From: Candidatus Limnocylindrales bacterium
GTDB lineage: Bacteria > Chloroflexota > Limnocylindria > QHBO01
Length of the DNA: 64,000 nt
Assembly (NCBI GenBank): GCA_035540715.1
Contig: DATLGA010000041.1
Span: forward strand, 17,496-81,495
Direction: 5' to 3'
Part shown: piece by piece, positions 3,365 to 62,691 of the stretch
How the letters are laid out: each line of letters begins with the position of its first letter
Numbering within the stretch: the first letter of the stretch is position 1
Program-made: the position numbers and the translations under genes
Notes under the pieces: generated by a model
The model's database searches: none
What the model saw: only the letters and a program-made list of their open reading frames with translations
What the model was told of the DNA's origin: nothing

Positions 3365-3366
3365 CG

Positions 3367-5489: not shown

Positions 5490-5552
5490 GACAGCACGAC
5501 GCCCGCGTCCGGTCGGACGCGGGCGCATCGGCGCGCGGGTGGGAGGGAGAGG

Positions 5553-5744: not shown

Positions 5745-5801
5745 GGTCGAGTTCGGTCTCCAATCACAAGGGAACCGGCGCGGTGCGCCGGCGCGGCCGC
5801 G

Positions 5802-8943: not shown

Positions 8944-8972
8944 TCCGGCCAAGGAGGGCCGTCGCCACGGAC

Positions 8973-9506
8973 ATCATCTTCCTGGTCGAGCGACTCGAGT
9001 CGCTGGTCGCGACCGGCAAGAAGCTGCCGCTCACGAACAACGTCGTGCTCGACCAGGCCACCGTTCTCGAGCTGGTCGACCAGCTCCGGGTCTCGGTCCC
9101 CGACGAGGTGCGCCAGGCACGGCGCATCACCGAGGAGGCGGGCCGCATCACGGAGCGCGCCCGCGACGAGGGGGACCAGATCGTCGCCCGCGCCCAGGAG
9201 CAGGCGGCCCAGATGCTCGAGGAGCGGGAGCTCGTCCGCGCCGCCCAGGCCCGTGCCGCGGAGATCATCGAGCAGGCGCAGACCGAGGCGCAGGAGGTCC
9301 GGCGCGGCGCTGACGAGTACGCCGCAGGCGTCCTCATCCGGCTGGAGGGCGAGTGCATCAAGGCCCTGACGAGCATCAAGCGTGGCATCGACATGCTCGA
9401 CGAGCGGCATCGGTCCGCGTCGGACGACGGCACGCAGCCCGCCCGCAGCAGCGAGGCGATCGTCGTGGATCCGGAGGAGCAGGCCCACAGCGCCCCTCGC
9501 CCATGA
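8973..9506 (+). CDS. hypothetical coiled-coil protein (conserved position between coaD and yceD)
   Basis: Open frame continuing from strong SD AAGGAGG (8951-8957); product ATDIIFLVERLESLVATGKKLPLTNNVVLDQ... then long charged helical region; no canonical start codon in frame near the SD (first in-frame codons GCC ACG GAC ATC ATC), so start is uncertain. Confidence 0.45.
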   Translation: MIFLVERLESLVATGKKLPLTNNVVLDQATVLELVDQLRVSVPDEVRQARRITEEAGRITERARDEGDQIVARAQEQAAQMLEERELVRAAQARAAEIIEQAQTEAQEVRRGADEYAAGVLIRLEGECIKALTSIKRGIDMLDERHRSASDDGTQPARSSEAIVVDPEEQAHSAPRP

Positions 9507-41626: not shown

Positions 41627-42331
41627 ATGGGCACCGCGGGCGAGCCGATCGGAGGCGCGGCGGCGCTGGCGAGCATCGCGGAGGAGATCCGCGGATGCAC
41701 GCGCTGCCGCCTCGCCACCGGCCGAACGCGAACGGTCCCCGGAGAGGGAAACCCGCTGAGCGACGTGCTCCTCGTCGGCGAGGGGCCCGGCGCGAGGGAG
41801 GACGTCACCGGCCGGCCGTTCGTCGGGCCGGCCGGGCAGCTGCTCGACGAGCTCCTCCGGTCGATCGGCTGGGAGCGGGAGGACGTGTTCATCACGAACG
41901 TGGTGAAGTGCCGACCGCCGGGCAACCGCGATCCGGAGCCGGTCGAGATCGCCACCTGTTCGGCCTACCTCGATCGCCAGGAGCATGCGCTCCAGGCCGC
42001 CGTGGTCGTGAGCCTCGGGCGGCACTCGCTGCAGCGTTACCTGCCGGGTGCGCGCATCGGCGCCGTTCACGGAAGCCTGCGTCGCTCGTACTCCGGCCAG
42101 CACGTCTTCCCGATGTACCATCCTGCTGCGGCACTGCACCAGGCTTCGCTGCGCGAGACGCTGTTTCGCGACATCCGTGGCCTGCCGGCGGCGCTGCTTG
42201 CCGCGCGCGAGGCGCTCGGCAACGCGGCGGAGCGATCGGTCGTGGCGGAGGAGGCGGTGGCCCGGGCGAGCGAGCCCGATGGCCCTCCCGACGACGCCCA
42301 ACAGATGACTCTCTTCCAGGAGCACCCATGA
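41627..42331 (+). CDS. uracil-DNA glycosylase, family 4 (UdgA-type)
   Basis: GCTRCRL Fe-S cysteine context, GEGPGAREDVTGRPFVGPAGQLL, HPAAAL; internal ATG of ORF 41561. Confidence 0.8.
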   Translation: MGTAGEPIGGAAALASIAEEIRGCTRCRLATGRTRTVPGEGNPLSDVLLVGEGPGAREDVTGRPFVGPAGQLLDELLRSIGWEREDVFITNVVKCRPPGNRDPEPVEIATCSAYLDRQEHALQAAVVVSLGRHSLQRYLPGARIGAVHGSLRRSYSGQHVFPMYHPAAALHQASLRETLFRDIRGLPAALLAAREALGNAAERSVVAEEAVARASEPDGPPDDAQQMTLFQEHP

Positions 42332-43992
42332 CCGAAACCCTGCGCATCATCCCGCTCGGCGGGGTGGGCGAGGTCGGCAAGAACATCACCGTCGTCGAGT
42401 TTGGTGACGAGATCCTCGTCATCGACTGCGGCCTCGCGTTTCCGGAGCCGGAGATGCTCGGCATCGACCTCGTCATCCCGGACGTGTCGTACCTCGCGGA
42501 GCGGCGTGACCGCGTCCGCGCCATCCTTCTGACCCACGGCCACGAGGATCACACCGGAGCGCTGCCGTACGTGCTGCCGAAGATCCCCGGCACGCCGATC
42601 TACGCGACGCGCCTCACCGAAGGCCTCGTGCAGGGCAAGCTGCGCGAGCACAAGCTGCTGGACTCGACGCCGCTCCACGTCGTCGAGCCGGCGACCGAGT
42701 TCGCGGTCGGTTCGTTCCGCGTCACACCCTTCCGGGTGAACCACTCGATTCCCGACGGCGTCGGCTACGCCGTCCGCACCCCGCTCGGCACGATCGTCCA
42801 CACCGGTGACTTCAAGTTCGACCACACGCCGCCCGACGGGCGGCGCGCCGACCTCGGCCTCATCGCCGAGATCGGCAACCGTGGCGTCGACTTCCTGCTG
42901 TCGGACTCGACGCGCGCCGAGAAGGACGGCTACACGCTCTCCGAGTCGACCGTCGGCGAGAGCCTGCATCGGCTCGTCGGAGAGGCGCCCGGACGCGTCA
43001 TCGTGGCGACCTTCGCCAGCAACATCGGCCGGGTGCAGCAGGTCATCGATGCCGCGTGGGCGCACGGGCGCAAGATGGTCGCGCTCGGGCGCAGCATGGA
43101 GCAGAACACCGCCATCGCCCTCGAGCGAGGCTACCTCGACGACCGTGGCGGGACGCTGGTCAAGAAGGACCAGCTCCAGCGGCTGTCGAAGGAGCAGCTC
43201 GTGGTCATGACCACCGGGTCGCAGGGCGAGCCGATGTCCGGCCTGACGCGGATGAGCAACCGGGACCATCGCAACATCACGATCGAGCCGGGCGACACCG
43301 TGATCGTCTCGGCCAGCCCGATTCCGGGCAACGAGGAGGCGGTCGCGAAGACGATCGACAACCTCTTCAAGGAAGGCGCGATGGTGCACTACGAGCCACT
43401 CGTGCACTGCCACGTATCCGGGCACGGGTCGCGCGAGGAACTCAAGCTCATGCTCGGTCTCGTGAAGCCGCGCCACTTCGTGCCCGTCCACGGCGAGTAC
43501 CGCATGCTCGTCCAGCACGGTCTGCTGGCCGAAGGGGCAGGCGTCGACGTCGACAAGATCTTCGTGCTCGAGAACGGGCAGGTCGTCGAGTGGGATGGCG
43601 AGCGCGCCCGAATGGCAGGCACCGTCACGGCCGGGGCGGTTCTCGTCGACGGCATCGCGGCCATCGACGGCATCGACGGCGTCGTGCTTCGCGACCGACG
43701 CATGCTGGCCTCCGACGGAGTCGTCCTGGTCGCGATCACGGTCGACACGAAGACCGGACAGCCGGTCGGCACGCCGGATCTCGTGAGCCGCGGCTTCCTG
43801 TCGGACCCCGAGGATCCGCTCCTCGGGGAGGCGCGCGATCACCTGCTCGCCGCGCTCCGGCAGCCACGTGAGGACCAGCACGCTGCGGAAGCAGGCTTCG
43901 TGAAGACGAAGAGCCGCGACACCCTCCGCCGGTTCTTCCACCAGCGCACGAAGCGGCGCCCCATGATCCTGCCGATCGTGATGGAGGTCTGA
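42328..43992 (+). CDS. rnj: ribonuclease J (metallo-beta-lactamase/beta-CASP)
   Basis: ATG overlapping udg TGA; IIPLGGVGEVGKNITVVEF, LTHGHEDHTGALPY HxHxDH motif. Confidence 0.9.
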   Translation: MTETLRIIPLGGVGEVGKNITVVEFGDEILVIDCGLAFPEPEMLGIDLVIPDVSYLAERRDRVRAILLTHGHEDHTGALPYVLPKIPGTPIYATRLTEGLVQGKLREHKLLDSTPLHVVEPATEFAVGSFRVTPFRVNHSIPDGVGYAVRTPLGTIVHTGDFKFDHTPPDGRRADLGLIAEIGNRGVDFLLSDSTRAEKDGYTLSESTVGESLHRLVGEAPGRVIVATFASNIGRVQQVIDAAWAHGRKMVALGRSMEQNTAIALERGYLDDRGGTLVKKDQLQRLSKEQLVVMTTGSQGEPMSGLTRMSNRDHRNITIEPGDTVIVSASPIPGNEEAVAKTIDNLFKEGAMVHYEPLVHCHVSGHGSREELKLMLGLVKPRHFVPVHGEYRMLVQHGLLAEGAGVDVDKIFVLENGQVVEWDGERARMAGTVTAGAVLVDGIAAIDGIDGVVLRDRRMLASDGVVLVAITVDTKTGQPVGTPDLVSRGFLSDPEDPLLGEARDHLLAALRQPREDQHAAEAGFVKTKSRDTLRRFFHQRTKRRPMILPIVMEV

Positions 43993-43998
43993 GCCGCG

Positions 43999-46425
43999 GT
44001 GGCCACCCGCCGACGCACGAGCACCACCCGCCGCCGAACGACGCGGCGCCGTCGCCAGCCGGCACCGTTCGTCGTGAGCGGCCGCTTCCTCAGGGAGGCG
44101 CTGGCCCTGATCCTCCTCTTCCTCGCGATCATCAGCGTCATCGCGCTCTTCGCGCCGGACTCCGGCGCCATCGTGCGGCCCTGGCACGGCGTGCTGTCGA
44201 CCCTCCTCGGATGGGGGATCGCGTTCGCCGCCCCGCTGCTCGTCGGGTTCGCCGTGATGCTGTGGATGAAGACGATGCCCGCCGAGCGGTGGATGGCCGC
44301 GACCGGGGCCGCTGTCTTCGCGGTGGCGCTGCTCGGGATGTTCCACCTCGCGGTCGGCGGCGGCGCGGAGGCGGTCGAGACCGGTCAGGGCGGGGGAGCG
44401 ATCGGCTTCGCGGTGAGCGCGCTGCTGACCGGAGCGATGGGCCCGGCCGGCGCCTGGGTGGTGCTCGTCCTGCTCGCCGCAGTCGGCCTGCTCCTGTACT
44501 TCAATATGACCATCGGCGACCTGGTTGCCGCGTACCTCGCCGGACGAGACGAGCGCCACGCCCAGGAGGCCGAGGCGGCCCGGCGGGCCGCGGCGAGCAG
44601 GCGAGGCCGTGCCGCAGAGGTGCCGGCAGGCGCGACCGCGAGCACCGAGGCCGAGCCGCGCACCGGGCTCATCGACCGCATGCGCGATCGCCTGGCTGGC
44701 GGCGCAGACGCGGACGACGAGCCGCCGCTCATCGTCCGACGGGAGCGTCCGGCCACCAACGGCGCCGGCGCGCGAGCCGTCGCCGCCCCGGTTCCGGTCC
44801 CAGCGCCGGTCGGTCCGGTCGGTGAACCCGGCGTGGACGAGGACGGCGCTGCGGGCGACTCGGAGGCGCGACCGGCATCGTCGGGGGAGCTCGAAGAGGG
44901 CGAGCAGCTCCATCTCGCCCAGGCCGCCGCCGACGAGGCCGCCGATGCCGCACTCGAGTCGGCCGAGCGCAGCTGGGACCTGCCGTCGCTCGAGCTGCTG
45001 GCCGATGCGCCCGAGTCGTCGGCCGCCCAGCTCGACCTGTCGGCCAAGGGCAAGCGGATCCGCGAGACGCTGGCTCACTTCGGCATCGGCGTCAAGGTGG
45101 CCCGCATCCAGGAGGGCCCGGTCGTCACCCAGTATGCCCTCGAGGTGGATCCGGGCATCAAGCTGAGCCGGATCGAGGGGCTCGCCGACAACCTCGCGCT
45201 GGCGCTCTCGGCACGGAGCATCCGGATCGAGGCACCGATTCCGGGCGAGCCGTACGTCGGCGTCGAGATCCCGAATGCGGCCTTCGACCTCGTCACGCTC
45301 AAGGAGGTGCTCGCGAGCCGCAACTTCGCCCAGATGAGCGAGCGCTCGAAGCTCGCCTTCGCGCTCGGGCAGGACGTCGCCGGCCAGCCGTTCAGCGCCG
45401 ACCTCGCGAAGATGCCGCACCTGCTGATCGCCGGCGCGACCGGGTCCGGGAAGAGCGTCTGCGTGAACGCGATCATCGACAGCTTCCTCATGAACGCGTC
45501 GCCGGCCGAGGTCAAGCTCATCCTCATCGATCCCAAGCGCGTCGAGCTGGCGCAGTACAAGGGCATCCCGCACCTGCTGACCGAGGTCATCGTCGAGCCC
45601 GACAAGGCGGTGAACGCGCTGAAGTGGACGGTCGGGACGATGGAGAGCCGATACGCCGAGTTCGCCTCGCGCGGCGTGCGGAACATCGCCGGCTACAACG
45701 AGGCGCTGCGTCCCGGTCAGCCGCGCATGCCGTACGTCGTCGTCGTCATCGACGAGCTTGCCGACCTCATGATGGTCTCGGCCTACGAAGTCGAAGCCAC
45801 GATCACCCGCATCGCGCAGCTCGCGCGCGCGACGGGCATCCACCTCGTGGTCGCCACACAGCGACCGTCGGTCCAGGTCATCACCGGCCTCATCAAGGCG
45901 AACATCCCGTCGCGCATCGCGTTCGCGATGACGTCGGGGGTCGACTCGCGCACGATCCTCGACACGACCGGCGCGGAGGATCTCCTCGGCCGCGGCGACA
46001 TGCTCTACCAGCCGATCGACGCGCCGCGTGCGGTGCGCCTCCAGGGCGTGCTCGTGACGGACCCCGAGATCGAGGCGGTCGCGCGCCACTGGCGCGCGCA
46101 GGGCGGAGCGCAGTACCGGCCGGAGATCACGGCCCCGAAGCGTGACGGCAAGGCGGGCGGCCGGCCCGGTGAGGAGGACGAGGACGATGACGCCGATGCC
46201 CTCCTCGGCCAGGCCGTCGACATCGTGCGACGATCCGACAAGGCATCGGCGTCGCTGCTCCAGCGCCGGCTGCGCATCGGCTACGCGCGTGCCGCGCGGA
46301 TCCTGGACCAGATGGAGGACCGGGGCATCGTCGGGCCCGCGGACGGCAGCCGCTTCCGCGAGGTCCTCGTGACGAGCGACGGGTGGGGAGGTGACCTCGC
46401 TCCGGACGAGGACGAGGAGGCGTGA
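43999..46425 (+). CDS. ftsK: DNA translocase FtsK/SpoIIIE
   Basis: N-terminal TM segments, GATGSGKSVCVNAIIDS Walker A, C-terminal gamma (winged-helix) domain. Confidence 0.9.
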   Translation: MATRRRTSTTRRRTTRRRRQPAPFVVSGRFLREALALILLFLAIISVIALFAPDSGAIVRPWHGVLSTLLGWGIAFAAPLLVGFAVMLWMKTMPAERWMAATGAAVFAVALLGMFHLAVGGGAEAVETGQGGGAIGFAVSALLTGAMGPAGAWVVLVLLAAVGLLLYFNMTIGDLVAAYLAGRDERHAQEAEAARRAAASRRGRAAEVPAGATASTEAEPRTGLIDRMRDRLAGGADADDEPPLIVRRERPATNGAGARAVAAPVPVPAPVGPVGEPGVDEDGAAGDSEARPASSGELEEGEQLHLAQAAADEAADAALESAERSWDLPSLELLADAPESSAAQLDLSAKGKRIRETLAHFGIGVKVARIQEGPVVTQYALEVDPGIKLSRIEGLADNLALALSARSIRIEAPIPGEPYVGVEIPNAAFDLVTLKEVLASRNFAQMSERSKLAFALGQDVAGQPFSADLAKMPHLLIAGATGSGKSVCVNAIIDSFLMNASPAEVKLILIDPKRVELAQYKGIPHLLTEVIVEPDKAVNALKWTVGTMESRYAEFASRGVRNIAGYNEALRPGQPRMPYVVVVIDELADLMMVSAYEVEATITRIAQLARATGIHLVVATQRPSVQVITGLIKANIPSRIAFAMTSGVDSRTILDTTGAEDLLGRGDMLYQPIDAPRAVRLQGVLVTDPEIEAVARHWRAQGGAQYRPEITAPKRDGKAGGRPGEEDEDDDADALLGQAVDIVRRSDKASASLLQRRLRIGYARAARILDQMEDRGIVGPADGSRFREVLVTSDGWGGDLAPDEDEEA

Positions 46426-48755: not shown

Positions 48756-50168
48756 GTGGTCATAGCCGGCGAGCGCATCCACGTGATCGGCATCGCCGGA
48801 TCGGGAGCCGCCGGCACGGCAGTGCTGCTGCACCACGCCGGGGCCACCGTCGACGGCTGCGACGCCGACGCACCGTCGCCGTACACGCCGCCGCTCGATG
48901 CACACGGCATCCGATACGTCGCCGGGCACGATGCCGCGCACCTCGAGGGCATCGACCGGGTCGCGATCACCCCGGCGATCCGCTCGCTGCCGCACCACGA
49001 CGAGCTTGCCGCGGCCGAGGCCCGCGGGATCCCGGCCCAGCCCTGGCAGGCGCTCCTCGGCGAGCTCATGCGCGCGCCGAACCGTATCGGCGTGGGCGTG
49101 ACCGGGACGCACGGGAAGTCCACGACGACCGCCCTGCTCGGACATCTCCTCGTCGAATCCGGGCTCGATCCGACGGTCGAGGTCGGCGCCTTCATCCGCG
49201 CGTGGGGAGCGTCCGTCCGTCCGGGGGACGGCGCGGCGTTCGTGGTGGAGGCCGACGAGTTCGGCGACAACTTCCTGAACTACCACCCCGCGGCTGCGAT
49301 CGTGACGAACGTGGAGATGGATCATCCCGACTACTTCGCCGATGCCACCGCCGTCATGCGTTCATTCGAGCGCTTCGTCCGCGGCATGGAACCCCACCAT
49401 GCGCTCGGGGGCCGGCTCCTGGTCATCGCCGCGACCGACCCCGGTGCCACGGAGCTCGCGAATCGGCTCGGCGATTGGGAGGGGCGGATCGTCCGGTACG
49501 GCCGCGGCGGGGACGTGGAGGCCACCGACGTCGTCCACGAGCGCGCCGGAAGCTCGTTCAGCCTGTTCGATCGACGCTTCGAGACGTCGCTTGCGGGCGA
49601 GCACAACGTCCAGAACGCAACGGCGGCCCTGTTCATGGCGCGAGCCCTCGGCGCCGATCTGCATCGGCTGGCGGACGGCCTGCGCACCTTCGCCGGAGCC
49701 GGACGCCGGATGGAGCTGATCGCCGATACTCCGAGCGTGACGATCTACGACGACTACGGTCACCACCCGACCGAGGTGCGAGCCGCGCTCGCCGCCGCGC
49801 GCCAGAAGGTCGGCCCGGACCGCCGCCTGTGGGCCGTCTTCGAGCCGCACATGTACTCCCGCACCGCGCTGCTCCTGGACGCCTTCTCGACCGCCTTCGC
49901 CGATGCGGACGAGGTCGTCATCGCCGAGATCTTCGCCTCGCGCGACACCCCGCAGGCGATGGCCGCCACGTCGGCCGAGGCGCTGGCCGACGCCATCGAG
50001 CGTGCGTCGGGCATCCCGTCAATCGCGGTCGGCGACGTCGACGTGACGACCGACTACGTGGCCGACCATGTCACTCCGGGTGACGCCGTGCTCGTCATGG
50101 GAGCCGGGAAGTCGTACCGCATCGCGCGCGGCCTGGCAGATCGGCTCGCCAGCGGGGCGGCCTCGTGA
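48756..50168 (+). CDS. murC: UDP-N-acetylmuramate--L-alanine ligase
   Basis: GTG after GGGAGGGG; IHVIGIAGSGAAG, GTHGKSTTTALLGHLL. Confidence 0.9.
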   Translation: MVIAGERIHVIGIAGSGAAGTAVLLHHAGATVDGCDADAPSPYTPPLDAHGIRYVAGHDAAHLEGIDRVAITPAIRSLPHHDELAAAEARGIPAQPWQALLGELMRAPNRIGVGVTGTHGKSTTTALLGHLLVESGLDPTVEVGAFIRAWGASVRPGDGAAFVVEADEFGDNFLNYHPAAAIVTNVEMDHPDYFADATAVMRSFERFVRGMEPHHALGGRLLVIAATDPGATELANRLGDWEGRIVRYGRGGDVEATDVVHERAGSSFSLFDRRFETSLAGEHNVQNATAALFMARALGADLHRLADGLRTFAGAGRRMELIADTPSVTIYDDYGHHPTEVRAALAAARQKVGPDRRLWAVFEPHMYSRTALLLDAFSTAFADADEVVIAEIFASRDTPQAMAATSAEALADAIERASGIPSIAVGDVDVTTDYVADHVTPGDAVLVMGAGKSYRIARGLADRLASGAAS

Positions 50169-50542
50169 TCGGCGCGCGGTCGGCCGTCCTGGGAGCCATC
50201 CTCGCGATCGCCGTGGCGATCGCCTACCAGGGCGTCGTCGGCCTCGTCGAGGCATCCGGCGCACGGGACCAGCCGGCCGTGATCCTCATCCTCCTGCTCG
50301 CCGCCTTCCTGGGCGTCCTGACCGCCGTCGCGACCCGCATGCTGCGCCTGCCCGGCGCTACGGCACCGACCGTCCTGGTGCTCGCCTGGACCCTCGTGCC
50401 GGTCGTCCTCGGCGCGGTCCCGTCCGCAGCCACCGCCATGTTCGCCGGCGACGCGGCGCTCACGTCAGGACAGGCGCTTGCCCTGGCCACTGCGACGGTG
50501 GCCGCGGCCGTGACGCTCGGAGTGCCCGCCGAACGTCGCTAA
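50165..50542 (+). CDS. small hydrophobic membrane protein, translationally coupled to murC
   Basis: GTGA overlap with murC stop; 125 aa, ~3-4 predicted TM helices rich in Ala/Leu/Val; no known motifs. Confidence 0.4.
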   Translation: MIGARSAVLGAILAIAVAIAYQGVVGLVEASGARDQPAVILILLLAAFLGVLTAVATRMLRLPGATAPTVLVLAWTLVPVVLGAVPSAATAMFAGDAALTSGQALALATATVAAAVTLGVPAERR

Positions 50543-50543
50543 C

Positions 50544-53500
50544 CTAGTCGCCCTCGCCGCGCAGCTGGGCGAACGTGGGGCAGTTGTTCTGGGGGAAGAA
50601 CCTCTGGCACTCGAAGTCGCTGAATCCTCGGCTGAGAGATCGCCGAACCAGGGTCAGGAGCTCGTCCCGATCCAGCGTGACCGTCTGGACCGTGCCGCCC
50701 TGCGGCGCGACGATCAGGCGATGCTCGTCACGGAAGGCCAATCCCTGGATCTCGGCCGTCCCGAACCGGAGCTCGTGGCGGACGGCCCCGGTGTCGCTAT
50801 CGAACACTCGAACGAAGCCGTCGGACGAACCAATCGCGACGAGCGACCGGTCCGGGCTCATCGCCTGACTCTTGATCGACCCTTCCGAGATTCGGCTCGC
50901 GCTCCGGCTCGTGTCGACCGCCAGCGTGTCCACGTCCACCCAGAAGAGTCCTCCCCCCGCATCTCCAACCGACCCCCACGCGATGAACGTCGAGCCATCG
51001 AGGAAGTCGACCAGGGTCAGGTTCGTGGCATCGAGAAATCGAGGGTCGGTGCTGGCCTCCAGCGTTCGCTCCCATGCTCCGACCGAGATGCGGTCGAGGC
51101 GGCGCCCGAAGTACGTGACGATGAGGTCTGCCCCGTCCGGAGTGAAGAACGCGTCGGTGACGAAGCCACGTCGCTGGTCGACGGGCTCCGTGTACAGCAA
51201 TGCCCCGGTGTGGGTGTCCCAGACGGCGAAGTACATCCCACGTGAGACCCCGGCAAGCATCGTCCCGTCCGGAGACCACGCGAGGCGGTTCGCGTAGAAG
51301 ATGAACGGCGCTTCGGGGTTCGTTCGGCAGTCCGATGACACGATATGGAAGTCATCCCATTCACAGGTGCCCTCGAGCTGTACGAGGACCTCACCCGTCG
51401 CCACGTCCTGGATCGCGATCGGCCCGAACTGGAAATCCTTTCCGGGCAGGTGATGCGCGATCCTGCGTCCGTCGGGCGAGAGCCCGCTTGCCTGCGCCTG
51501 GTGGTCGGTGTACCGCGCAAGCACATGGAGCTGGTCGGGTTCGAGGATGAAGGTGGTCGCGGGGTCCAGCGGGCCGTCACAGGCAACCACGATGCTTGCA
51601 GTCTCCTGCCGCAACTGCAGCCCGTACGCGATCGTGAAGCCGGGACACGTGAACGATCCCGCAACCTCGCCCCGCCGCTGCGGGTCGACCACCAGCGCGG
51701 TGCGCGCCGAGAAGTCCGTGACGAGCCCTCGTCCGTCATCGGCGAGCGTCACCATGCCGGGCGCCAGCCCTGACCAGCGACCGAGCGGCTCGGCGCCACG
51801 GGCCGTCCAGTGATGGAGCGTGGCGTCGCGGCCGGTCGTCACGACGGAGTCGGCTGACGCGAATGTCCCGTACCAGCTTCCTCCGGCATGCCCGCTGTAG
51901 GAGGCCACCACCTCGCCCAGCGCGACGTCCCAGACCTCCACCGGTCGATCACCGTAGAGCAGCAACGCTCCATCGGCGCTCAGTCGCCGAACGTACGCGT
52001 TGAATTGGCCCGTGCTGTACGGGTCGATCTCGAGAAGCATGTCGCCGGTTTCAAGATCGATCACCACCGATCGAGTGGTCTCGTCGGACGCGTCGTCGTA
52101 CGCGACCACGCTGCCGTCCGCGCTGATGGCCGCAGCCCCGTCGTCCTCTCTGAGTGCATGTTCGGTCAGGACTCGGCGCTCGCCACGCTCCAGGTCGATC
52201 AGCTCGAGAGTGACGACGTCCTGGTCGAAATGGAAGCAAGACGGCGCTTCGTCGGTTGGATCGGGCAGGGTGAGCGCCAGCAGGCTCACCGCCGAAACGG
52301 CCACCACGATGCCGCCGCAGGCGCCGACATCCAGCCGGGTGACCTCCGCGCCCGTGCGGGCATCCCACACGTGGATGCCCAGGCCCTCCGGCGGCGGTGG
52401 AGGATCGACATTCGGTGGGGTCCAGTAGCTCCCCGCAAGAACGAGCGCACCATCGGCGCTGAAGTGTGCCAGGCCGATCGATCCCGACTCGTCGTCGAGC
52501 GCGTACTCCCAGAGCACTCGTCGGGTCGCCATCTCGTAGACCTCGATGCGATTGCTCGTCTCCCAGTTTTCGCCCGAGGCCGCGATGAGCTCGCCTGCGG
52601 GATCCATCACGGCACGCAGCGATGGCTCGCGCGGATCCTCCGGCCACGCGTACGTGTCCATGACGATGTCGGCCGCATGTGCCTGATGCAGCGCGGAGAG
52701 GGCCTCGAGCGGCGGGTTGTCCATCGAGGATGCGACGAGCGCGAGAAGCCGGGCGCGCATGGGGTTGTCGTCGAGCGAAGCGATCGCCGACGCCGCGAGG
52801 GCCCGACTCTGAGCCTCGGCGGCGGCCCGCTCCGCCTCGGCGGCGGCCCGCTCAGCCTCGGCTGCCTGCTGCGTCGCGAACGCCCCGGCCCCGACTGCGA
52901 CCAGCAGGAAGACCACGGCTGCTCCGAGGAGAGCCTTGAGCCGCCGGTTCGTCCGTCGCTGGCGCTCCGCTTCGGCATCGGCTTCGGCTTTGCTGGTCTC
53001 CACGAAGGCGTGCTCGGTGGCGTTCAGGTCTCGCCGGTGGCCCGCTGCCCAGTCGAGGGCAGCGGCCAGACGAGCACCCCGATAGAGGTCGTCGGATGGC
53101 TGCCCCCGCTCGGCCCACGCCTGAGCGGTGGTCGCCAGATGGAGCCGCACCTGCCGACCCGTCGCGTCGTCGGTCAACCAAGCCCGGTAGCGAGGCCACT
53201 CGCGAAGCAGAGCCTCGTGGGCGAGCTCCGCGTAGCCGTCACCCGCCACCAGGAGCCGATCCCGTATGAGGGCGTCGACAACGAGCGTCGCCCTTGAGTC
53301 CCGGTCAAGATCGAGCTCAGCGAGTGGCACGCGCCGTCTCACCACGGCGCCGCCCTCGCCCGTGCCGCTCAGGCGCAGGAACACGCCGCGCGCAACCTCC
53401 TGCTCAGTCGGCGCGAGTCGTCCGAAGGCGGACTCCGCCAGTCGTCCGACGGCTCCGTGCAGTCCGCCCGTGCTGCGATAGCCCGCGAGCGTCAGACGGC

Positions 53501-55625
53501 GCCCGTCGCGCGCAAGCCACAGCTCCAGGAGGGCGGTGGAGAGGAGCGGCAGCACGGAGGCGTCGCTGCCTGCATCGTCGACGAGCGCCGCGGTGAGATC
53601 AGGGTCGACGCGGAGTCCCACTCGCGTCGCGGGGTGCTCGATGATGGCCCGAATCTCGTCACGCTGCAGGGGTCCGACGAGCACCTGGCTCTCGCCAAGA
53701 CGCTTGGCAAGGAGAGGGTAGGCCGCCGCGTGTTCGTAATGATCCGCCCGCATGGCCACCACCACCTTGAGGCCGGAGCGCTCCGTCGTGATGATGTCCA
53801 GGAACTCCAGGCGCTCGTCCGCATCGACGTCGTTGGCGAACAGCTCTTCGAACTGGTCGACGATGAGCAGCAGCCGCTGGTGTTCCGCCAGGCTTCCCAG
53901 CATCTTCAGCAGAGCAGCACGTGGATGCTCTTCGTACATGGGGTCCAGGGAGGTAGAACGCTCGAGGGCGGCCCGCAGCTCGCCGAGCGGGCTGTCCCCG
54001 GGGCGCATGACGGCCTGGACCCACCGATCACTGGCCGGCAGCACGCCGGCCGCCAGCGCCGGCAGGAGGCCGGCGTGGAGCGCCGACGACTTGCCGCTGC
54101 CGGAGGCCCCGACCAGGCCGACGAACGAGGCGCCCACGAGACGGGCGATGAGCTCTCCGATGAGCCGCTCACGCCCGAAGAACGCGTCGGCGTCGCCGGC
54201 CTCGAACGCGGCGAGGCCCTTGTAGGGACAGACCACCACGTCGGGACCGACCTCTTCGGTCGGTCGCTCCGGTTGGTCCAGATACAGCCGAGTCCGCTCG
54301 CGTGCCCGTTCGAGCTGGACGAGGTCCTGCAACATCGCAGACTCCGCAGCCCGCAGGCCGCGCCGTTCGGCTGCGGTACGTTGGGCCGTGGCACCGAGGC
54401 GGCGAGTGGCGGCACCTCGGGCCCACTGGCTGGCGACGCGATGGACGGCGGCCGGCACTCCGCCACTCTCCTGGAGGATCATGTGCGCCGGCAGCTCCTC
54501 GGCTTCTTGCTCGCCGTACAGCCGGGCCACGGCGGCGGTCTCCTGGAGGTCGAGCGCCCCGAGGACCCGGCGCCGAGGCGCCGGGACGAGGCGTTCGATC
54601 AGGCGCATCAACGATGGCGAAGCCGGGTCGCGATGCGAGAGCACGACCAGCCGTCGTTCGTGGCCCGGCGCCAGCGCCGACATGAGCCTCCGGACATCCG
54701 TCGCCGGCAGTGCTTCGACGTCATCGATGACCACGAGCGCGGTCGCGACGGGTGCCGTCAGGTCTCCGCTTCCGCGCACGTACACCACCGCCGCGCCATC
54801 GCCGTACGCGATCCCTGCGAGCTCGGCGGCGAGGCGTGTCCGACCCATGCCGGATGCTCCGGAGAGCACGACGAGCCCGCCGTGTCCGTGGCGAGCTCGA
54901 CGCCAGTGCCAACCGAGCCATCGAAGCTCCGACGCCCGTCCGACCAGGGGAACGATCGGATCGAGCTCCGGTGCCAGGGCTGGCCGCTCGCTCACGCTGC
55001 CGTCAAACGGCTGGTGGACATGCACCTCGGTCGCCGTGATGCGTGTCGCCGGCGTCGGTGCGTCGAAGCCTTTGAGCGGCTTCCCGTCGAGCTCGGCGTA
55101 CGCCAGGCCGTCCACATGGCCGGCGAGGTGGATGAGGCTGGCTGACGCGAGGACCTCGCCAGCCGCCGCGGCCGAGCACAACCGCGAGGCCAGGTTCACC
55201 GCCGCGCCCCGGTACCCATCGCCGATGGGGACGGCTTCGCCGGCATCCAGACCGATGCCCACACGAAGCGGCAGATCCGGCACGGCGGCCGTCTCGTCGG
55301 CGAACGCCTCCTGCAGCTCGACGGCGCACCGCAGGGCCTGTCGAGCGGACTCGAATGAACAGAGCGCCTCGTCGCCTCTCAGCTCGACGAGCTCGCCGTC
55401 CCACGCCTCGACACCCTCGGCGACGACCTGCGCAAACTTCGCGGCGAGGCGAGAGGCGGCCTCGTCACCGAGCTCGTTCGTGAACCGTGTGTAGCCACGG
55501 ATATCGGCGATCAGGAAGGTCCTGATGGCGCTGGGACGCTGCGCCGCCGGCCGCTTCGGCGTCATGGCCGTTCCCCCCGGCCAAGGAGGTCGCGTAAGGC
55601 GACCTTCCCTGTCGCCACGTTCCAC
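50544..55625 (-). CDS. multidomain signalling protein: class III nucleotidyl cyclase - AAA-like ATPase (degenerate P-loop) - STAND-type NTPase - TM helix - C-terminal PD40/WD40-like beta-propeller
   Basis: Cyclase motifs FLIADIRGYT, GDEALCSF, RVGIGLDAGEAVP, GAAVNLASRL; P-loop 1 GASGMGRT; P-loop 2 GASGSGKSS with Walker B LLLIVDQFEELF; TM LKALLGAAVVFLLVAVGAGAF; repeated SxDG/PDG beta-propeller blades (AWSPDGTMLAG, FFTPDGADLIV). Alternative start at Met21 (55565). Confidence 0.8.
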   Translation of the reverse strand: MERGDREGRLTRPPWPGGTAMTPKRPAAQRPSAIRTFLIADIRGYTRFTNELGDEAASRLAAKFAQVVAEGVEAWDGELVELRGDEALCSFESARQALRCAVELQEAFADETAAVPDLPLRVGIGLDAGEAVPIGDGYRGAAVNLASRLCSAAAAGEVLASASLIHLAGHVDGLAYAELDGKPLKGFDAPTPATRITATEVHVHQPFDGSVSERPALAPELDPIVPLVGRASELRWLGWHWRRARHGHGGLVVLSGASGMGRTRLAAELAGIAYGDGAAVVYVRGSGDLTAPVATALVVIDDVEALPATDVRRLMSALAPGHERRLVVLSHRDPASPSLMRLIERLVPAPRRRVLGALDLQETAAVARLYGEQEAEELPAHMILQESGGVPAAVHRVASQWARGAATRRLGATAQRTAAERRGLRAAESAMLQDLVQLERARERTRLYLDQPERPTEEVGPDVVVCPYKGLAAFEAGDADAFFGRERLIGELIARLVGASFVGLVGASGSGKSSALHAGLLPALAAGVLPASDRWVQAVMRPGDSPLGELRAALERSTSLDPMYEEHPRAALLKMLGSLAEHQRLLLIVDQFEELFANDVDADERLEFLDIITTERSGLKVVVAMRADHYEHAAAYPLLAKRLGESQVLVGPLQRDEIRAIIEHPATRVGLRVDPDLTAALVDDAGSDASVLPLLSTALLELWLARDGRRLTLAGYRSTGGLHGAVGRLAESAFGRLAPTEQEVARGVFLRLSGTGEGGAVVRRRVPLAELDLDRDSRATLVVDALIRDRLLVAGDGYAELAHEALLREWPRYRAWLTDDATGRQVRLHLATTAQAWAERGQPSDDLYRGARLAAALDWAAGHRRDLNATEHAFVETSKAEADAEAERQRRTNRRLKALLGAAVVFLLVAVGAGAFATQQAAEAERAAAEAERAAAEAQSRALAASAIASLDDNPMRARLLALVASSMDNPPLEALSALHQAHAADIVMDTYAWPEDPREPSLRAVMDPAGELIAASGENWETSNRIEVYEMATRRVLWEYALDDESGSIGLAHFSADGALVLAGSYWTPPNVDPPPPPEGLGIHVWDARTGAEVTRLDVGACGGIVVAVSAVSLLALTLPDPTDEAPSCFHFDQDVVTLELIDLERGERRVLTEHALREDDGAAAISADGSVVAYDDASDETTRSVVIDLETGDMLLEIDPYSTGQFNAYVRRLSADGALLLYGDRPVEVWDVALGEVVASYSGHAGGSWYGTFASADSVVTTGRDATLHHWTARGAEPLGRWSGLAPGMVTLADDGRGLVTDFSARTALVVDPQRRGEVAGSFTCPGFTIAYGLQLRQETASIVVACDGPLDPATTFILEPDQLHVLARYTDHQAQASGLSPDGRRIAHHLPGKDFQFGPIAIQDVATGEVLVQLEGTCEWDDFHIVSSDCRTNPEAPFIFYANRLAWSPDGTMLAGVSRGMYFAVWDTHTGALLYTEPVDQRRGFVTDAFFTPDGADLIVTYFGRRLDRISVGAWERTLEASTDPRFLDATNLTLVDFLDGSTFIAWGSVGDAGGGLFWVDVDTLAVDTSRSASRISEGSIKSQAMSPDRSLVAIGSSDGFVRVFDSDTGAVRHELRFGTAEIQGLAFRDEHRLIVAPQGGTVQTVTLDRDELLTLVRRSLSRGFSDFECQRFFPQNNCPTFAQLRGEGD

Positions 55626-55830
55626 CCCACTTGCTCGGTGCGCGGAGTATCGGCCCCGCGGTACGTGCTGTCCAGTGTCAACGCCCGCATCGCCCCGCTC
55701 CTCGCTCCGTGCATGGAACGGTAGGGGAGCGGCGACCGCGATCCTAGCCGGCCGCAGTCAGGCCGCGTGTCGCCTCGACGACACCCTTGCATTCAGCCGT
55801 TGAGCGCTTGCTCGACCCTCCGGCCGGGGC

Positions 55831-57843
55831 ATGACCTTCGCCTCATCGCAGCCGGAGAAGCGCGCACGTAGTCTCCGGATGACTCCGCGTCGACTCCGCT
55901 CCAGCTCGAACGAGGCTCCCTTGACCCGCACGCCGTCGTCCGTCTCCCGGATCATCCTGCCGCTCATCGTGGCGGTCGCCCTCCTGCTCCCCGCTGTGCC
56001 GGTCGCGGCGTGGACCGCCAGCGCCACCGGCTACTCGACGCACGACTGGATCGTCGACCAGGCGGTGAAGGTGCTCGATGGTCGAGCCTCCGACTGGTTC
56101 AACGCGGCCGTCGCGCGGGAAGCCAGTGACGACCCGGATACCGATGGCGTCCCGGACATCTATCACGTGTATCGCGACGTCGGGAAGCGCGGGGGAGCGG
56201 TCCACCGGATCACCGAGCACTATGCCGCCGCGATGCGGCTGTACCAGGAGGGCGTGGCCGCTCGCTCCGCTGGCAACGCGTCCACGGCGTCCGCGCGCTT
56301 CCAGGCGGCCAGCCGCGAGATCGGCTGGCTGTCCCACTACTACACCGATATCCTCGTCCCGTATCACTCGCATTACGACGGCATCGGTCAGGACACGGCA
56401 CATCACCAGTACGAGGCGCTCGTCGGCCAGCAGACCCGAAAGGCAGGCGACCGACCGGATTGGTCCAGCTCGCGGCGCAGCGTCGCGACCATCAGCAGCA
56501 TCCGGACGAGCGCGATCGCCGCTGCCGCCCACTCGCGCACCTTCTACCCCGAGCTTCACTCGCTGGTCCTGGCGAGCCCGACCAAGCTCACCGCGCGAAT
56601 GTCCGAGATCACCGGACTGCTCCTCGTGCGGAGCGCGAACGATCTCGCCGACATCATCTGGTCGATCTCGGCCGGCAAGGGCAACGCCGCGCCGATCGGT
56701 TCACTGAGTGCGAGCGTGAAGTGGACGTACCCGGTCAAGAACGAGCCATGGCAGGGCGTCTTCGTGACAGCCACGGACACCGCCGGACGGCCGATGGAAG
56801 GCCTCGAGGTGCTCATCACGCTGCCCCTTCCGGTCGGGAGCACCACCACGGTGAAGGTCTTCACCGACCCGAAGGGGCAGGCGAAGTGGGCAGGCCAGAT
56901 CGGCGCGAGTGCACATCTCGTCCGCCAGGACGTGACTGCGCGCGCGACGACCGACGGACGCACCGTGACCGGCATGACATGGTGGGCGACCTCGCCGGTG
57001 CTCGCCAGCGGCAGTGATGGGTTCCGCAGCTGGGTCGACAACGCGACGCCCGTGGCGGGGGAGTACGTGACGGTCCGGTCGACCGTGCGCGACACCGCCG
57101 GCCGCGCCGTGGTCGGGATTCGCGTGAACTGGACCTGGTCGTACGGCGCCACCAAGCAGTCCACCACCGCACTCACCAACAGCCAGGGAGTGGCGGCCTC
57201 CAAGCGGCTCGTCAGCTCGAGCACGACGTTCGACACGGTGGTCATCGACGCCCACGTGCAGTCCGGCAGCGGAAACCGCTACTCGCGCGCGGCGTTCCAG
57301 CGTCAGCCCGGCGGCACCAGCGAGCCCTACAAGGGGTGGTTCACCGACATCTGGGACAGCAAGTTCCGGGACGACATCGTGTGGCTGGCCGAGGCCGGCA
57401 TCACGGTCGGCTGCTCCGCGGACCGCTACTGTCCGGACGGCCCGGTCACGCGGGAGCAGATGGCGACCTTCCTGGTCCGTGCCCTGAAGCTCCCGTCCAG
57501 CTCGAAGGACTTCTTCACCGACGACGGCGCATCGAAGCACCACGCCTCGATCAACGCGCTGGCCGCGTCCGGGATCACCAGCGGCTGCGGCGACAGGAAG
57601 TTCTGCCCCTCGGGTCGCGTGACCCGCGAGCAGATGGCCAGCTTCCTGACCCGCGGCCTGTCGCTTCCGCCGACGCAGCGGAACTACTTCAGCGACGACG
57701 ACAGCTCGAGGCATCACGCCGCGATCAACGCGTTGGCCGCGTCCGGAATCACCAGCGGCTGCGGCACCGATCGCTTCTGTCCACGCATAACGGTCACGCG
57801 CGGGCAGATGGCGGCCTTCCTCCGGCGCGCGCTGACGCGCTGA
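55831..57843 (+). CDS. secreted S-layer-homology (3x SLH) protein with N-terminal zinc-dependent phospholipase C / P1-nuclease-like domain and Ig-like middle region
   Basis: Signal peptide; WTASATGYSTHDWIVDQAVKVL (PLC Trp1/His zinc-site pattern), HYYTDILVPYHSHYDG; C-terminal three SLH repeats (FTDIWDS..., FTDDGASKHHASINALAASGITSGCG, FSDDDSSRHHAAINALAASGITSGCG). Confidence 0.75.
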   Translation: MTFASSQPEKRARSLRMTPRRLRSSSNEAPLTRTPSSVSRIILPLIVAVALLLPAVPVAAWTASATGYSTHDWIVDQAVKVLDGRASDWFNAAVAREASDDPDTDGVPDIYHVYRDVGKRGGAVHRITEHYAAAMRLYQEGVAARSAGNASTASARFQAASREIGWLSHYYTDILVPYHSHYDGIGQDTAHHQYEALVGQQTRKAGDRPDWSSSRRSVATISSIRTSAIAAAAHSRTFYPELHSLVLASPTKLTARMSEITGLLLVRSANDLADIIWSISAGKGNAAPIGSLSASVKWTYPVKNEPWQGVFVTATDTAGRPMEGLEVLITLPLPVGSTTTVKVFTDPKGQAKWAGQIGASAHLVRQDVTARATTDGRTVTGMTWWATSPVLASGSDGFRSWVDNATPVAGEYVTVRSTVRDTAGRAVVGIRVNWTWSYGATKQSTTALTNSQGVAASKRLVSSSTTFDTVVIDAHVQSGSGNRYSRAAFQRQPGGTSEPYKGWFTDIWDSKFRDDIVWLAEAGITVGCSADRYCPDGPVTREQMATFLVRALKLPSSSKDFFTDDGASKHHASINALAASGITSGCGDRKFCPSGRVTREQMASFLTRGLSLPPTQRNYFSDDDSSRHHAAINALAASGITSGCGTDRFCPRITVTRGQMAAFLRRALTR

Positions 57844-60937: not shown

Positions 60938-61086
60938 CTGTTCGACTCATGGTAGCCGATCCCCCGCCGGCGCTCGATCAGACCCACGGGTGCCGACCGG
61001 TACGAAGGTCCTGCTGCCGAACCGCGCCGGAATCTGCCATACCAGACCCGACATATCCGCCCGGGGGACCTGGAGGTAAGGCCGGC

Positions 61087-62691
61087 GTGGACGCACACCC
61101 GGATCGACGTTCTCCGCGCACCCTGAGCACCGGAGCCCTGACCCGCCGCCTGCTCGGCGGCGTCGTCGTCTCGGTGGTGGCGTTTGCGGCCACCTTCCGC
61201 GGCCTGCACTTCGCGCTGGGCGTCGACGAGCTTCCCGCGGCGGTCGTCGCGACCGCCGTGACGCTCGTCCTCGCGGCAACGGCACTCGAGGCCGTCGTCC
61301 GGCCGCTCCTCAGCGCCCAGGCCCACCTCGAGGACCGATACGCGGAGGCCCTCGCGGATGCGCTCCGTGACCCGCTCACCGGCCTCGGAAACCATCGCGC
61401 CTTCCACGAGGAGCTCGATCGCCAGGCCGAGGCGGCCCTGCGGTACGGAACCCCGGTGGCGCTGCTCCTCATCGATCTCGACGAGTTCAAGGCCGTGAAC
61501 GACCGGCTCGGCCACGCCGGCGGCGACCGGCTGCTGCGCGCGTTCGGCCAGCTGCTGAGCACGACCGTGCGACGGGCCGATCGCGCCTTCCGGGTGGGTG
61601 GGGACGAGCTGGCGGTGATCCTGCCGCACACCGACGTCGAGGGTGCTCGCGTCGTCGCCCGCCGCCTGCTGGCCGAGGCCCTCCAGCCATCGATCCGGCT
61701 GGAGGACCACGAGCCGATGTCGTTCTCCGCCGGCCTCTCCGCCATCCCGGAGCTTGCCGACGGCCGCGCGCGCCTCTACGCGCAGGCCGATGCCGCGCTC
61801 TATGCCGCGAAGCGCGGCGGACGAACGGACATCGCCGTGTTCGATCCCGCGACCGAGGTCGATCGTGCGGACGCCGGTGCGGCATCCTCGGCGATCATCG
61901 ACGTCATCGCGCGGGGTCAGCTCACGCCCGTGTACCAGCCGATCGTGGAGCTCGACACCGGACGGGTGATCGGCGTCGAGGGCCTCATCCGGCCGGTGCC
62001 GCCCGCTCCCTTCGCGAACCCCGCCGAGCTTTTCGCCGCGGCAGAAGCCGGCGGCCGGGTCACGGCGCTCGACCTCGCCTGCATCGAAGCGATCGTCGCC
62101 GGTGCGGTGGTCGACCTGGCCACCGACCGGTTCCTCAGCCTCAATCTGTCGCCCTCGACGCTCGAGGCACCCGAGTTCAGCGGCGCCGCGCTGCTCGGCA
62201 TCCTCGCTCGCCACGGGTTCGCACCGACCCGCCTCGTCGTCGAGCTGACGGAGCGCGAGACGCTGCACGACCTGGAGCGCGTTCGGTCCCGGATGGAGAT
62301 CTGCCGCCGGGCTGGCGTCCGCTTCGCGGCCGACGACGTCGGCGCCGGCAACGCCGGCCTCCGCCTCCTCGCCGAGATCAGCTTCGAGATCATCAAGGTC
62401 GACCTCGGCCTCGTTCAACGCAGTGCGTCGGGCGGTCCGTCGAGCGCCGTGCTCGGGTCGGTCGTCGAGCTCGCGTCGAGGACCGGCGCCATGATCGTCG
62501 CCGAGGGGGTCGAGGACGCGTCGCAGCTGCCTCAGCTCACGGCGATGGGCATCACCATCGGCCAGGGCTACCATCTCGGTCGCCCAGGGCGCCTCACGAG
62601 TGACTCCGCCACGGCGGAGGATCGACCCGCTGCCACCGCGACCGGCATGGCGGCCTGGCGCAGCTCGATCGGCCTGCCATCGGTCAGCTGA
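61087..62691 (+). CDS. membrane-anchored GGDEF-EAL diguanylate cyclase/phosphodiesterase-family protein (non-canonical GGDEL and EGL motifs)
   Basis: GTG 61087 after GGAGGTAAGG (ORF-track ATG 60949 also possible); TM segments; RVGGDELAVIL (GGDEL), QPIVELDTGRVIGVEGLIRP (EGL in place of EAL), DDVGAGNAGL, EGVED. Confidence 0.75.
   Translation: MDAHPDRRSPRTLSTGALTRRLLGGVVVSVVAFAATFRGLHFALGVDELPAAVVATAVTLVLAATALEAVVRPLLSAQAHLEDRYAEALADALRDPLTGLGNHRAFHEELDRQAEAALRYGTPVALLLIDLDEFKAVNDRLGHAGGDRLLRAFGQLLSTTVRRADRAFRVGGDELAVILPHTDVEGARVVARRLLAEALQPSIRLEDHEPMSFSAGLSAIPELADGRARLYAQADAALYAAKRGGRTDIAVFDPATEVDRADAGAASSAIIDVIARGQLTPVYQPIVELDTGRVIGVEGLIRPVPPAPFANPAELFAAAEAGGRVTALDLACIEAIVAGAVVDLATDRFLSLNLSPSTLEAPEFSGAALLGILARHGFAPTRLVVELTERETLHDLERVRSRMEICRRAGVRFAADDVGAGNAGLRLLAEISFEIIKVDLGLVQRSASGGPSSAVLGSVVELASRTGAMIVAEGVEDASQLPQLTAMGITIGQGYHLGRPGRLTSDSATAEDRPAATATGMAAWRSSIGLPSVS

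Follow-up and report, generated by a model that had tools for sequence, protein, structure and literature searches.

A soil Chloroflexota gene encodes a predicted single-pass receptor that joins a class III nucleotidyl cyclase and a STAND NTPase to external WD40 propellers

The subject of this analysis is a gene on the reverse strand (50544..55625) of a 64-kb window, the whole stretch of 64,000 nucleotides examined here, from contig DATLGA010000041.1 of Candidatus Limnocylindrales bacterium. The gene is real and encodes a predicted single-pass membrane protein of a soil Chloroflexota bacterium. From sequence comparison and structure modelling, its predicted domain order is a divergent class III nucleotidyl cyclase, a minimal AAA_16 module, a long helix, an nSTAND1 NTPase (of the STAND class, signal transduction ATPases with numerous domains), a basic patch, a transmembrane (TM) helix, a stalk, two WD40 propellers and a tail bearing a Cys pair. 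We think it somewhat probable that the protein is a membrane receptor built on a STAND chassis, in which external propellers sense a ligand, the nSTAND1 switch clusters the cyclases and cGMP, or both cAMP and cGMP, is made in the service of envelope or environment sensing. The features of the gene are listed below, with residue numbers (aa) given throughout in the frame of the 1693-aa maximal open reading frame (ORF), which starts at a GTG at 55625; models are from AlphaFold 2 (AF2).

55646..55674, reverse strand: putative sigma-70-like promoter upstream of the start, a consensus match (TGGACA-17-GATACT; 1 found versus 0.3 expected)
50544..55565, reverse strand: coding sequence, probably from Met21 (1673 aa, then the stop codon), within a maximal ORF that reaches the GTG at 55625
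55056..55529, reverse strand: class III nucleotidyl cyclase, aa 33-190 (phmmer matches in PDB, NCBIfam, conserved catalytic residues)
54456..54950, reverse strand: AAA_16-type P-loop module, aa 226-390 (Pfam AAA_16, 39 bits versus a cut-off of 32.6)
54282..54455, reverse strand: predicted single long connector helix, aa 391-448 (AF2, residues 187-244 of a 266-aa model)
53094..54227, reverse strand: nSTAND1 STAND NTPase, aa 467-844 (Pfam PF20703)
52941..53093, reverse strand: helical region after the NTPase, aa 845-895, ending in the conserved basic patch ERQRRTNRR
52875..52940, reverse strand: predicted TM helix LKALLGAAVVFLLVAVGAGAFA, aa 896-917, with an N-in/C-out orientation
52665..52874, reverse strand: predicted extracytoplasmic helical stalk, aa 918-987 (AF2, helices 2-26, 31-42 and 49-61 of the ectodomain model)
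51675..52664, reverse strand: predicted WD40 propeller 1, about aa 988-1317, seven blades (AF2, Foldseek), with the variable Cys pair 1103/1130
50676..51674, reverse strand: predicted WD40 propeller 2, about aa 1318-1650, seven blades (AF2, Foldseek), with Cys pairs 1327/1349 and 1421/1433; the boundary between the propellers is an estimate from the strand list
50547..50675, reverse strand: C-terminal helical tail, aa 1651-1693, with the conserved Cys1673/Cys1682 (ECQRFFPQNNC)

An earlier note, made from the letters and a list of ORFs, had described a 1693-aa multi-module ORF at 50544-55625 with an N-terminal cyclase homology domain, a second P-loop of STAND type, one TM helix and about 700 aa of C-terminal beta-propeller, the cyclase and NTPases lying in the cytoplasm and the propeller outside. 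Coordinates and length were reproduced exactly, the motifs that it quoted were all found (FLIADIRGYT at 37-46, ELRGD at 81-85, GASGMGRT at 256-263, GASGSGKSS at 506-514, LLLIVDQFEELF at 585-596 and the TM segment at 896-917), and each of these assignments was supported by the profile, structural and alignment evidence given below. Homologue N-termini align at Met21 in the family alignment, matching the NCBI call, so translation probably starts there, at the ATG at 55565, to give 1673 aa. The NCBI protein HVM24559.1 ("AAA family ATPase", Candidatus Limnocylindrales bacterium), also of 1673 aa, is 100% identical to the predicted protein.

The G+C content of the window is 71%, and ORF length alone is weak evidence of coding in such DNA, because the strand opposite the real ftsK gene (43999-46425, forward strand) contains a spurious ORF of 1340 aa (42067-46089, reverse strand). 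The case for coding was therefore built on the G+C content at the three codon positions (0.75/0.51/0.82), the Pfam nSTAND1 match (E 8.5e-112), the identical database protein and more than 100 full-length homologues. The codon-position values are uniform across all 17 blocks of 100 codons, which counts against a frameshift or chimera; at the third position the gene lies somewhat below its neighbours (0.82 versus about 0.90).

The whole architecture recurs in a large family. A word-indexed search retrieved more than 100 proteins of 1,600-1,750 aa, with 36-50% identity over 98% of the query and an identical Pfam set; JGI names the homologues "class 3 adenylate cyclase/WD40 repeat protein", and the few named sources are Limnocylindria/Chloroflexota. 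When aa 21-470 were searched exhaustively against 1.84 billion representatives, 719 hits were obtained at E<=1e-30, the top hundred or so being mostly 1,570-1,900 aa in length or contig fragments. Residue conservation was counted on a MAFFT alignment of 112 full-length members, to which all counts out of 112 refer. Mean pairwise identity is 0.64 in the cyclase, 0.60 in nSTAND1, 0.44 in the AAA_16 module and 0.27-0.29 in the propellers, a pattern that fits a conserved output and switch combined with a diversifying sensor.

The predicted topology, a single pass with the N-terminus in, the C-terminus out and the propellers outside the cell, is supported by hydropathy, flanking charge bias and Cys parity across the 112 homologues. 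The TM segment reaches a Kyte-Doolittle mean of 2.48 over 19 residues, and a 19-residue window above 2.0 is present at the equal relative position in 112 of the 112. As a control, the identical scan gave no hit in cytosolic relatives of 1,100-1,200 aa that carry tetratricopeptide repeats (TPR). The basic patch ahead of the segment is kept across the family with the consensus R-Q-R-R-x-N-R-R-L-R, and the 15 residues before the helix hold a mean of 5.9 Lys/Arg versus 2.3 in the 15 after it.

The distribution of Cys points the same way. After the TM segment their number is even (2, 4, 6, 8 or 10) in 111/112 members, whereas before it an even count occurs in 55/112. Cys columns are gained and lost pairwise: 1421 and 1433 are both present in 74 members, both missing in 37 and found singly in 1. 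In the tail, Cys1673 occurs in 102/112 and Cys1682 in 110/112, and 102 have both. Such parity and paired gain and loss are the pattern expected of disulfide-bonded extracytoplasmic domains.

For the ectodomain (aa 925-1693), AF2 returned a model with a mean predicted local distance difference test score (pLDDT) of 93 and a predicted template modelling score (pTM) of 0.91, in which 14 four-stranded blades are folded as two WD40 propellers. Foldseek matched it to tandem seven-bladed WD40 propellers in the PDB (E from 1e-28 to 1e-21), including the Nostoc structure 2ymu (5.8e-28), Apaf-1 (E about 1e-24), Aip1 and EML-like proteins. With Pfam, the ectodomain alone scored 27.7 bits for WD40 (cut-off 27) and 25.6 for PD40 (cut-off 20.9).

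At the other end of the protein, the cyclase domain found its best PDB relatives by phmmer in entries of the class III cyclase Ma1120 of Mycobacterium avium (E 8.9e-18 to 1.3e-16 over 153 residues), followed by LipJ/Rv1900c, Cya2 (E 1.7e-7), CyaB, CyaC and Rv1264; in NCBIfam the cyclase part of LipJ was matched at E 4e-13. The metal-binding residues Asp41 (in FLIADIRGYT) and Asp85 (in LRGDE) align to the metal Asp residues of Ma1120. Asp85 is present in 112/112 and Asp41 in 110/112, the remaining two having a gap at this position, and the transition-state residues Asn144 and Arg148, within an N-x-A-[AS]-R motif, are each found in 112/112. The cyclase thus retains every catalytic residue, and catalytic competence is predicted.

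The residues expected to select the substrate are equally constant. In the HMMER alignment Glu81 falls on Lys101 of Ma1120 and Gly137 on Asp157, both invariant (112/112), and the top-scoring PDB chain, 5D0G, is the K101E/D157G/A167Y mutant of Ma1120. These are the substrate residues; the guanylyl cyclase Cya2 has the Glu-Gly pair, and K101E/D157G gave the best guanylyl cyclase activity of Ma1120 (PMC4215837). GTP recognition by guanylyl cyclases depends chiefly on the contact that Glu makes with guanine N1/N2, and the second residue varies (PMC7384201). As Glu81/Gly137 is the pair of Cya2, the enzyme is predicted to use GTP or to have dual specificity, so that it would probably make cGMP, or cAMP as well as cGMP. 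The earlier note had seen ELRGD at the adenine-specifying position, which was correct, and had called the product unclear, a view that this invariant pair allows to be sharpened. The full signature D-E-D-G-N-A-R is carried by 149/156 nSTAND1-type relatives, 27/31 of the TPR type and 6/6 of a type with a TM segment and ectodomain.

The same cyclase subtype occurs in other settings, among them cytosolic cyclase-AAA_16-TPR_MalT proteins of ~1,100 aa and one cyclase-AAA_16-NB-ARC-like-TPR protein. A sibling family of ~1,050 aa (P0229, P0240, P0245, P0250, P0252 and P0238) has a cyclase 59-61% identical to that of the target with the D-E-D-G-N-A-R signature, one TM segment at about aa 211-235, a beta-propeller of the YNCE/Vgb_lyase type and SBP_bac_5. 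By their domain order these siblings look like plain receptor-type cyclases in the equal orientation, with a probable guanylyl-cyclase-type specificity pair.

The central switch is assigned by a full-length match to PF20703 (model positions 1-378 of 379; 375 bits versus a cut-off of 27.1, at the E value given above). Its Walker A is GASGSGKSS (Lys512) and its Walker B LLLIVDQFEE (Asp590, Glu593, Glu594), within LLLIVDQFEELF. Lys512, Glu593 and Glu594 are each conserved in 112/112 and Asp590 in 111/112.

Between the cyclase and nSTAND1 lies the smaller AAA_16-type module, for which AF2 gave a five-stranded P-loop core with a small helical lid (pLDDT 88). Foldseek matched this model about equally to classical AAA+ proteins and to the NB-ARC domain of plant NLR proteins (nucleotide-binding, leucine-rich-repeat receptors), with E 1e-6 to 1e-7, which points to no finer subtype. 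The Walker A, GASGMGRT, has Arg262 in place of Lys, as the earlier note had observed; the Walker B is VVIDD (Asp301, Asp302). The proposal that the module is non-hydrolytic does not extend to the family, because Lys is the norm at this position (Lys in 97/112, Arg in 15/112; consensus GxxGxGKT). In the Arg variants the Walker B and the other positions of the loop are retained.

Relatives outside the family share the membrane-spanning part. Most nSTAND1 ORFs listed from GTDB genomes (Streptomyces, other Actinomycetota, Anaerolineae, cyanobacteria, Bacteroidota and Proteobacteria) have a common layout: 365-450 residues beyond Walker A comes a basic patch with a TM-like segment, and then another 400-750 residues. 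In tblastn searches, query residues 447-1637 align as a single block to such proteins, including those of Streptomyces. Because the layout recurs across phyla and the region aligns as a block, nSTAND1-TM-propeller is, as judged by these comparisons, a widespread chassis. What changes is the N-terminal slot, which in the target family holds the cyclase plus AAA_16 cassette and in the chassis relatives a Ser/Thr kinase (in some with LuxR or OmpR/BTAD DNA-binding domains), a caspase, CHAT or trypsin. The scan of GTDB genomes used two back-translated patterns that are generic nSTAND1 motifs, and the matches listed from it are mostly other nSTAND1 proteins rather than a census of the family.

Many complete nSTAND1-TM-WD40 ORFs in these genomes (L008-L055, from Streptomyces, Anaerolineae, cyanobacteria and Bacteroidota) finish in a short tail with two Cys, often of the form C-x(5-8)-NLT-x2-EW-x2-Y-x-P...C. 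This suggests a putative disulfide-stapled C-terminal element conserved across the whole nSTAND1-TM-WD40 chassis.

Some members depart from the common form. In P0137 and P0184 (1897-1899 aa), and also in P0100, P0102 and P0105, an extra Ser/Thr kinase stands ahead of cyclase-AAA_16-nSTAND1-TM-WD40. The only copy outside Chloroflexota among the matches listed from the GTDB scan is in a Gaiellales metagenome-assembled genome (Actinomycetota; L007, 3116-9336), where a cyclase ORF (3116-4018) and an AAA_16-nSTAND1-TM-WD40 ORF (5101-9336) are separated by a gap of ~1 kb that holds an ORF on the opposite strand; this may be an interrupted or split gene. One sample (ERZ25039554) contains three family members (L001, L002 and L003) with 55-61% mutual identity on contigs of 420, 634 and 917 kb. 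These may represent paralogues of a single genome or orthologues from related species, and tetranucleotide correlations, which are 0.96-0.99 among all Limnocylindria-like contigs, do not discriminate between the two.

The gene stands alone in a region of core housekeeping genes. Most of the 64-kb window was covered by the ORFs scanned with Pfam, and it contains smc, ftsY/ffh, rpsP-rimM-trmD-rplS, rpsB-tsf-pyrH-frr-uppS-cdsA, rseP and nusA-infB, together with truB, pnp, ftsK, a rodZ-like gene, cinA, a Mur ligase gene, hflX and miaA. Downstream, a 125-aa ORF (50165-50542, forward strand) closes the Mur-ligase operon, its start overlapping the Mur-ligase gene, and converges on the target with stop codons 1 nt apart; it has no Pfam or PADLOC match. 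The closest homologue, which is P0002 at 50% identity, retains this 3' synteny, with the ORF at 7069-7446 of L005; upstream of the homologue are a methyltransferase and pirin and no SLH gene. Four more distant members share zero neighbours with the target.

On the other side, the target is separated by a spacer of 205 bp (maximal ORF) or 265 bp (from Met21) from a divergent gene:

55831-57843, forward strand: secreted S-layer homology (SLH) protein with an N-terminal signal/TM-like segment, Big_1 and three C-terminal SLH repeats (SLH E 5e-18)

The earlier note had described this neighbour as an SLH-anchored Zn-phospholipase-C-like protein and had suggested that the two genes form an envelope-linked module. 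The SLH repeats hold; the phospholipase part falls below threshold, Zn_dep_PLPC scoring 22.6 bits versus a cut-off of 26.8. The pairing is absent from the locus of the closest orthologue and from the four other loci, so the module is unsupported and the SLH/phospholipase gene was ruled out as a functional partner.

Neither in the window nor at six homologous loci was an effector or cyclic nucleotide (cNMP)-binding gene found next to the target, and the gene pairing by which Pycsar systems are recognised is thus lacking there. Assignment to a defence system by PADLOC was likewise rejected, the hits being weak and generic at the level of the fold (PycC E 2e-6, mad8 1e-6). Two further genes of the window may be mentioned. 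A GGDEF-EAL protein of c-di-GMP turnover (60949-62691, forward strand) lies 5 kb from the target, past a SpoU methylase and hflX, and no link between them was seen. An 879-aa protein (38968-41607, forward strand) resembles polynucleotide phosphorylase (PNPase), with two RNase_PH domains, KH and S1. Its RNase PH domains are separated by a full-length RNase_T/DEDD exonuclease domain (PF00929, aa 265-418, E 1.4e-23), at the place where ordinary PNPases have an all-alpha domain.

In the reading that we favour, an external ligand would bind the two fast-evolving, putatively disulfide-bonded WD40 propellers, and the signal would travel inward along the stalk and the TM helix, reaching nSTAND1 by way of the basic juxtamembrane region. 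By analogy with other STAND/NLR switches, nSTAND1 would then exchange nucleotide and self-associate, and the resulting clustering of the N-terminal cyclase domains would switch on cNMP synthesis. Clustering should activate the cyclase because a class III cyclase works only once it has dimerised and formed its active sites at the interface, and the target cyclase must homodimerise because all its catalytic residues sit on one chain. The AAA_16 module would be a reduced remnant from the cyclase-AAA_16-TPR lineage, probably serving as an adaptor or as a second nucleotide-dependent latch. The stand-alone position of the gene in a core housekeeping region favours a role in envelope or environment sensing rather than in phage defence.

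Several points weigh against this reading. The Pfam model Guanylate_cyc (PF00211) scores 18.7 bits, under its cut-off of 21.9. The Tyr that enhances guanylyl cyclase activity in Cya2 is missing, the position of Ma1120 Ala167 being Ser147 here and Ala in 106/112, and two residues do not allow the specificity of a class III cyclase to be predicted reliably. A cGMP receptor or phosphodiesterase was not seen within the 64-kb window. Lastly, the nSTAND1 clade has been described within conflict and immunity systems (PMC8195603).

This last point opens an alternative in which the molecule is the same and its role is immunity: a surface detector of phage or competitors, akin to Avs and NLR proteins, whose messenger triggers a separate effector and growth arrest or death by the logic of Pycsar/CBASS. 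We regard it as rather unlikely, though as the main rival. It was among STAND systems directed against invaders that nSTAND1 was defined (PMC8195603), and conflict systems are known to use cNMP cyclases as effector domains (PMC7159879); sister architectures bear caspase, CHAT or trypsin as effectors, divergence of the sensor propellers is rapid, several family members occur within one metagenome sample and PADLOC gave its weak PycC hit. The genomic setting speaks otherwise, with a core housekeeping location, 3' synteny retained in the closest orthologue, none of six loci with an adjacent effector or cNMP-binding gene, and PADLOC matches of a generic kind; other sisters, those with a kinase plus LuxR or OmpR-type DNA-binding domains, resemble ordinary signal transduction. 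In a further alternative the cyclase-like domain would have no catalytic activity and would serve as a scaffold or a nucleotide-binding regulator, a status suggested for certain conflict-system cyclases, the output then being oligomerisation or the NTPase modules. The subthreshold Pfam score, the altered Walker A of the adjacent P-loop in the target and the inactive cNMP cyclase domains reported in some vWA-linked systems (PMC7159879) would agree with this, but both metal Asp, Asn144, Arg148 and the two specificity positions are each kept in 110-112 of 112 members, no other domain of the protein is as well conserved as the cyclase, and the closest solved relatives of the cyclase are active enzymes, all of which makes a dead domain very improbable.

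Two other explanations concern the protein itself. Were the hydrophobic segment not a membrane helix, the product would be a soluble STAND protein sensing an intracellular ligand by its WD40 domains, much like Apaf-1. This protein, which combines a NOD (nucleotide-binding oligomerisation domain) with a double WD40 propeller, ranks among the top structural matches of the C-terminal region, and most characterised STAND/NLR proteins are cytosolic. Against this stand a segment of such hydropathy in every one of the 112 homologues, after a conserved Arg-rich patch; the even Cys count in 111/112 beyond it, set against a random one before it; the lack of any hit in the scan of the cytosolic relatives; and the recurrence of basic patch and TM-like segment in most of the listed nSTAND1 ORFs of several phyla, the complete ones commonly with a two-Cys tail. 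We accordingly give a soluble protein little credence. That the ORF might be an artefact of mis-assembly or frameshift fusing separate genes had been raised in the earlier note; the source is a metagenome-assembled genome, and in the Gaiellales genome a cyclase ORF indeed lies ~1 kb apart from the ORF of the remaining domains. This explanation is effectively refuted, as the identical full-length architecture is encoded on more than 100 independent contigs (JGI, ENA, NCBI and Logan), the identical 1673-aa protein is found on a second contig and codon-position G+C is uniform along the gene.

STAND/NLR proteins are textbook cytosolic sensors, and a sizeable conserved family whose external sensor drives a cyclase would extend this paradigm to outside-in signalling. 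Confirmed bacterial guanylyl cyclases are few, and the constancy of the Glu-Gly pair in hundreds of relatives leads us to predict that many others exist, here in Limnocylindria, an abundant and uncultured lineage of soil and freshwater. The database name "AAA family ATPase" hides the cyclase, the switch and the sensor architecture alike. A broader proposal, which we put forward tentatively as a possibility, is that the nSTAND1 clade as a whole consists of transmembrane NLR-like receptors, which would detect external ligands with a disulfide-stapled double WD40 and signal inward by a STAND ATPase switch to exchangeable outputs (kinase, caspase, CHAT, trypsin or cyclase), and that the Limnocylindria family is a STAND-gated receptor guanylyl cyclase. 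It would then be a bacterial receptor for outside-in cGMP signalling without a described counterpart.

Compared with known systems, the closest framework is the nSTAND1 clade itself (PF20703; Kaur, Iyer, Burroughs and Aravind 2021, PMC8195603), with which the target has in common the GxSGSGKS and hhhhDQFEE motifs and the logic of a variable N-terminal output, a central NTPase and a C-terminal repeat sensor. As published, the stress in that clade is on FGS/lectin sensors and on EAD, TIR, caspase and kinase effectors (PMC8195603), and in this the target differs. In the literature searched, neither a cyclase plus AAA_16 cassette in the N-terminal slot of nSTAND1 nor a membrane-spanning nSTAND1 with external WD40 propellers has been described. 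The cyclase-AAA_16-TPR_MalT proteins have the equal cyclase subtype, with 50-53% identity over the cyclase plus the start of the P-loop, and as in the target their AAA_16 P-loop follows directly after the cyclase. They are cytosolic and without a TM segment, with a full AAA_16 NOD and TPR repeats at the end, whereas in the target only the core, the lid and a single helix of AAA_16 remain, and a second STAND NTPase, itself complete, comes next, before the TM helix and the WD40 propellers. The mycobacterial Rv0386 type is the known example of these proteins; the specificity positions of Rv0386 are reported to be Gln/Asn. Cya2 of Synechocystis (PDB 2W01) is a relative by its class III fold and has the Glu-Gly pair in common with the target; it is, however, a small protein with a different sensor and with the enhancing Tyr, where the target has Ser147 and the family Ala.

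Apaf-1, the NLR proteins and the bacterial Avs and bNACHT proteins likewise consist of a P-loop NOD followed by a repeat sensor, with an N-terminal output expected to be activated by oligomerisation. Their sensors are cytosolic, while the propellers of the target are placed outside by the predicted TM helix; the target further differs in its tandem P-loop modules, in a cyclase output instead of CARD, TIR, nuclease or protease, and in lacking a defence island. With receptor-type cyclases and kinases, such as the animal receptor guanylyl cyclases, the mycobacterial PknD, which is a kinase-TM-beta-propeller protein, and the sibling family of ~1,050 aa, its predicted plan has in common a single pass, an external ligand domain and dimeric cytoplasmic catalysis. 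It differs from them in a 650-aa double NTPase switch between cyclase and membrane, and from the animal receptor guanylyl cyclases in orientation, which is opposite, the N-terminus of the target being predicted to lie inside. All the domains, the logic of output, STAND switch and repeat sensor, and the protein itself, deposited under a generic name, are therefore known already; what is new with respect to the literature searched is the tandem-NTPase cyclase architecture, the predicted membrane-spanning topology and the guanylyl-cyclase-type specificity pair across a large clade.

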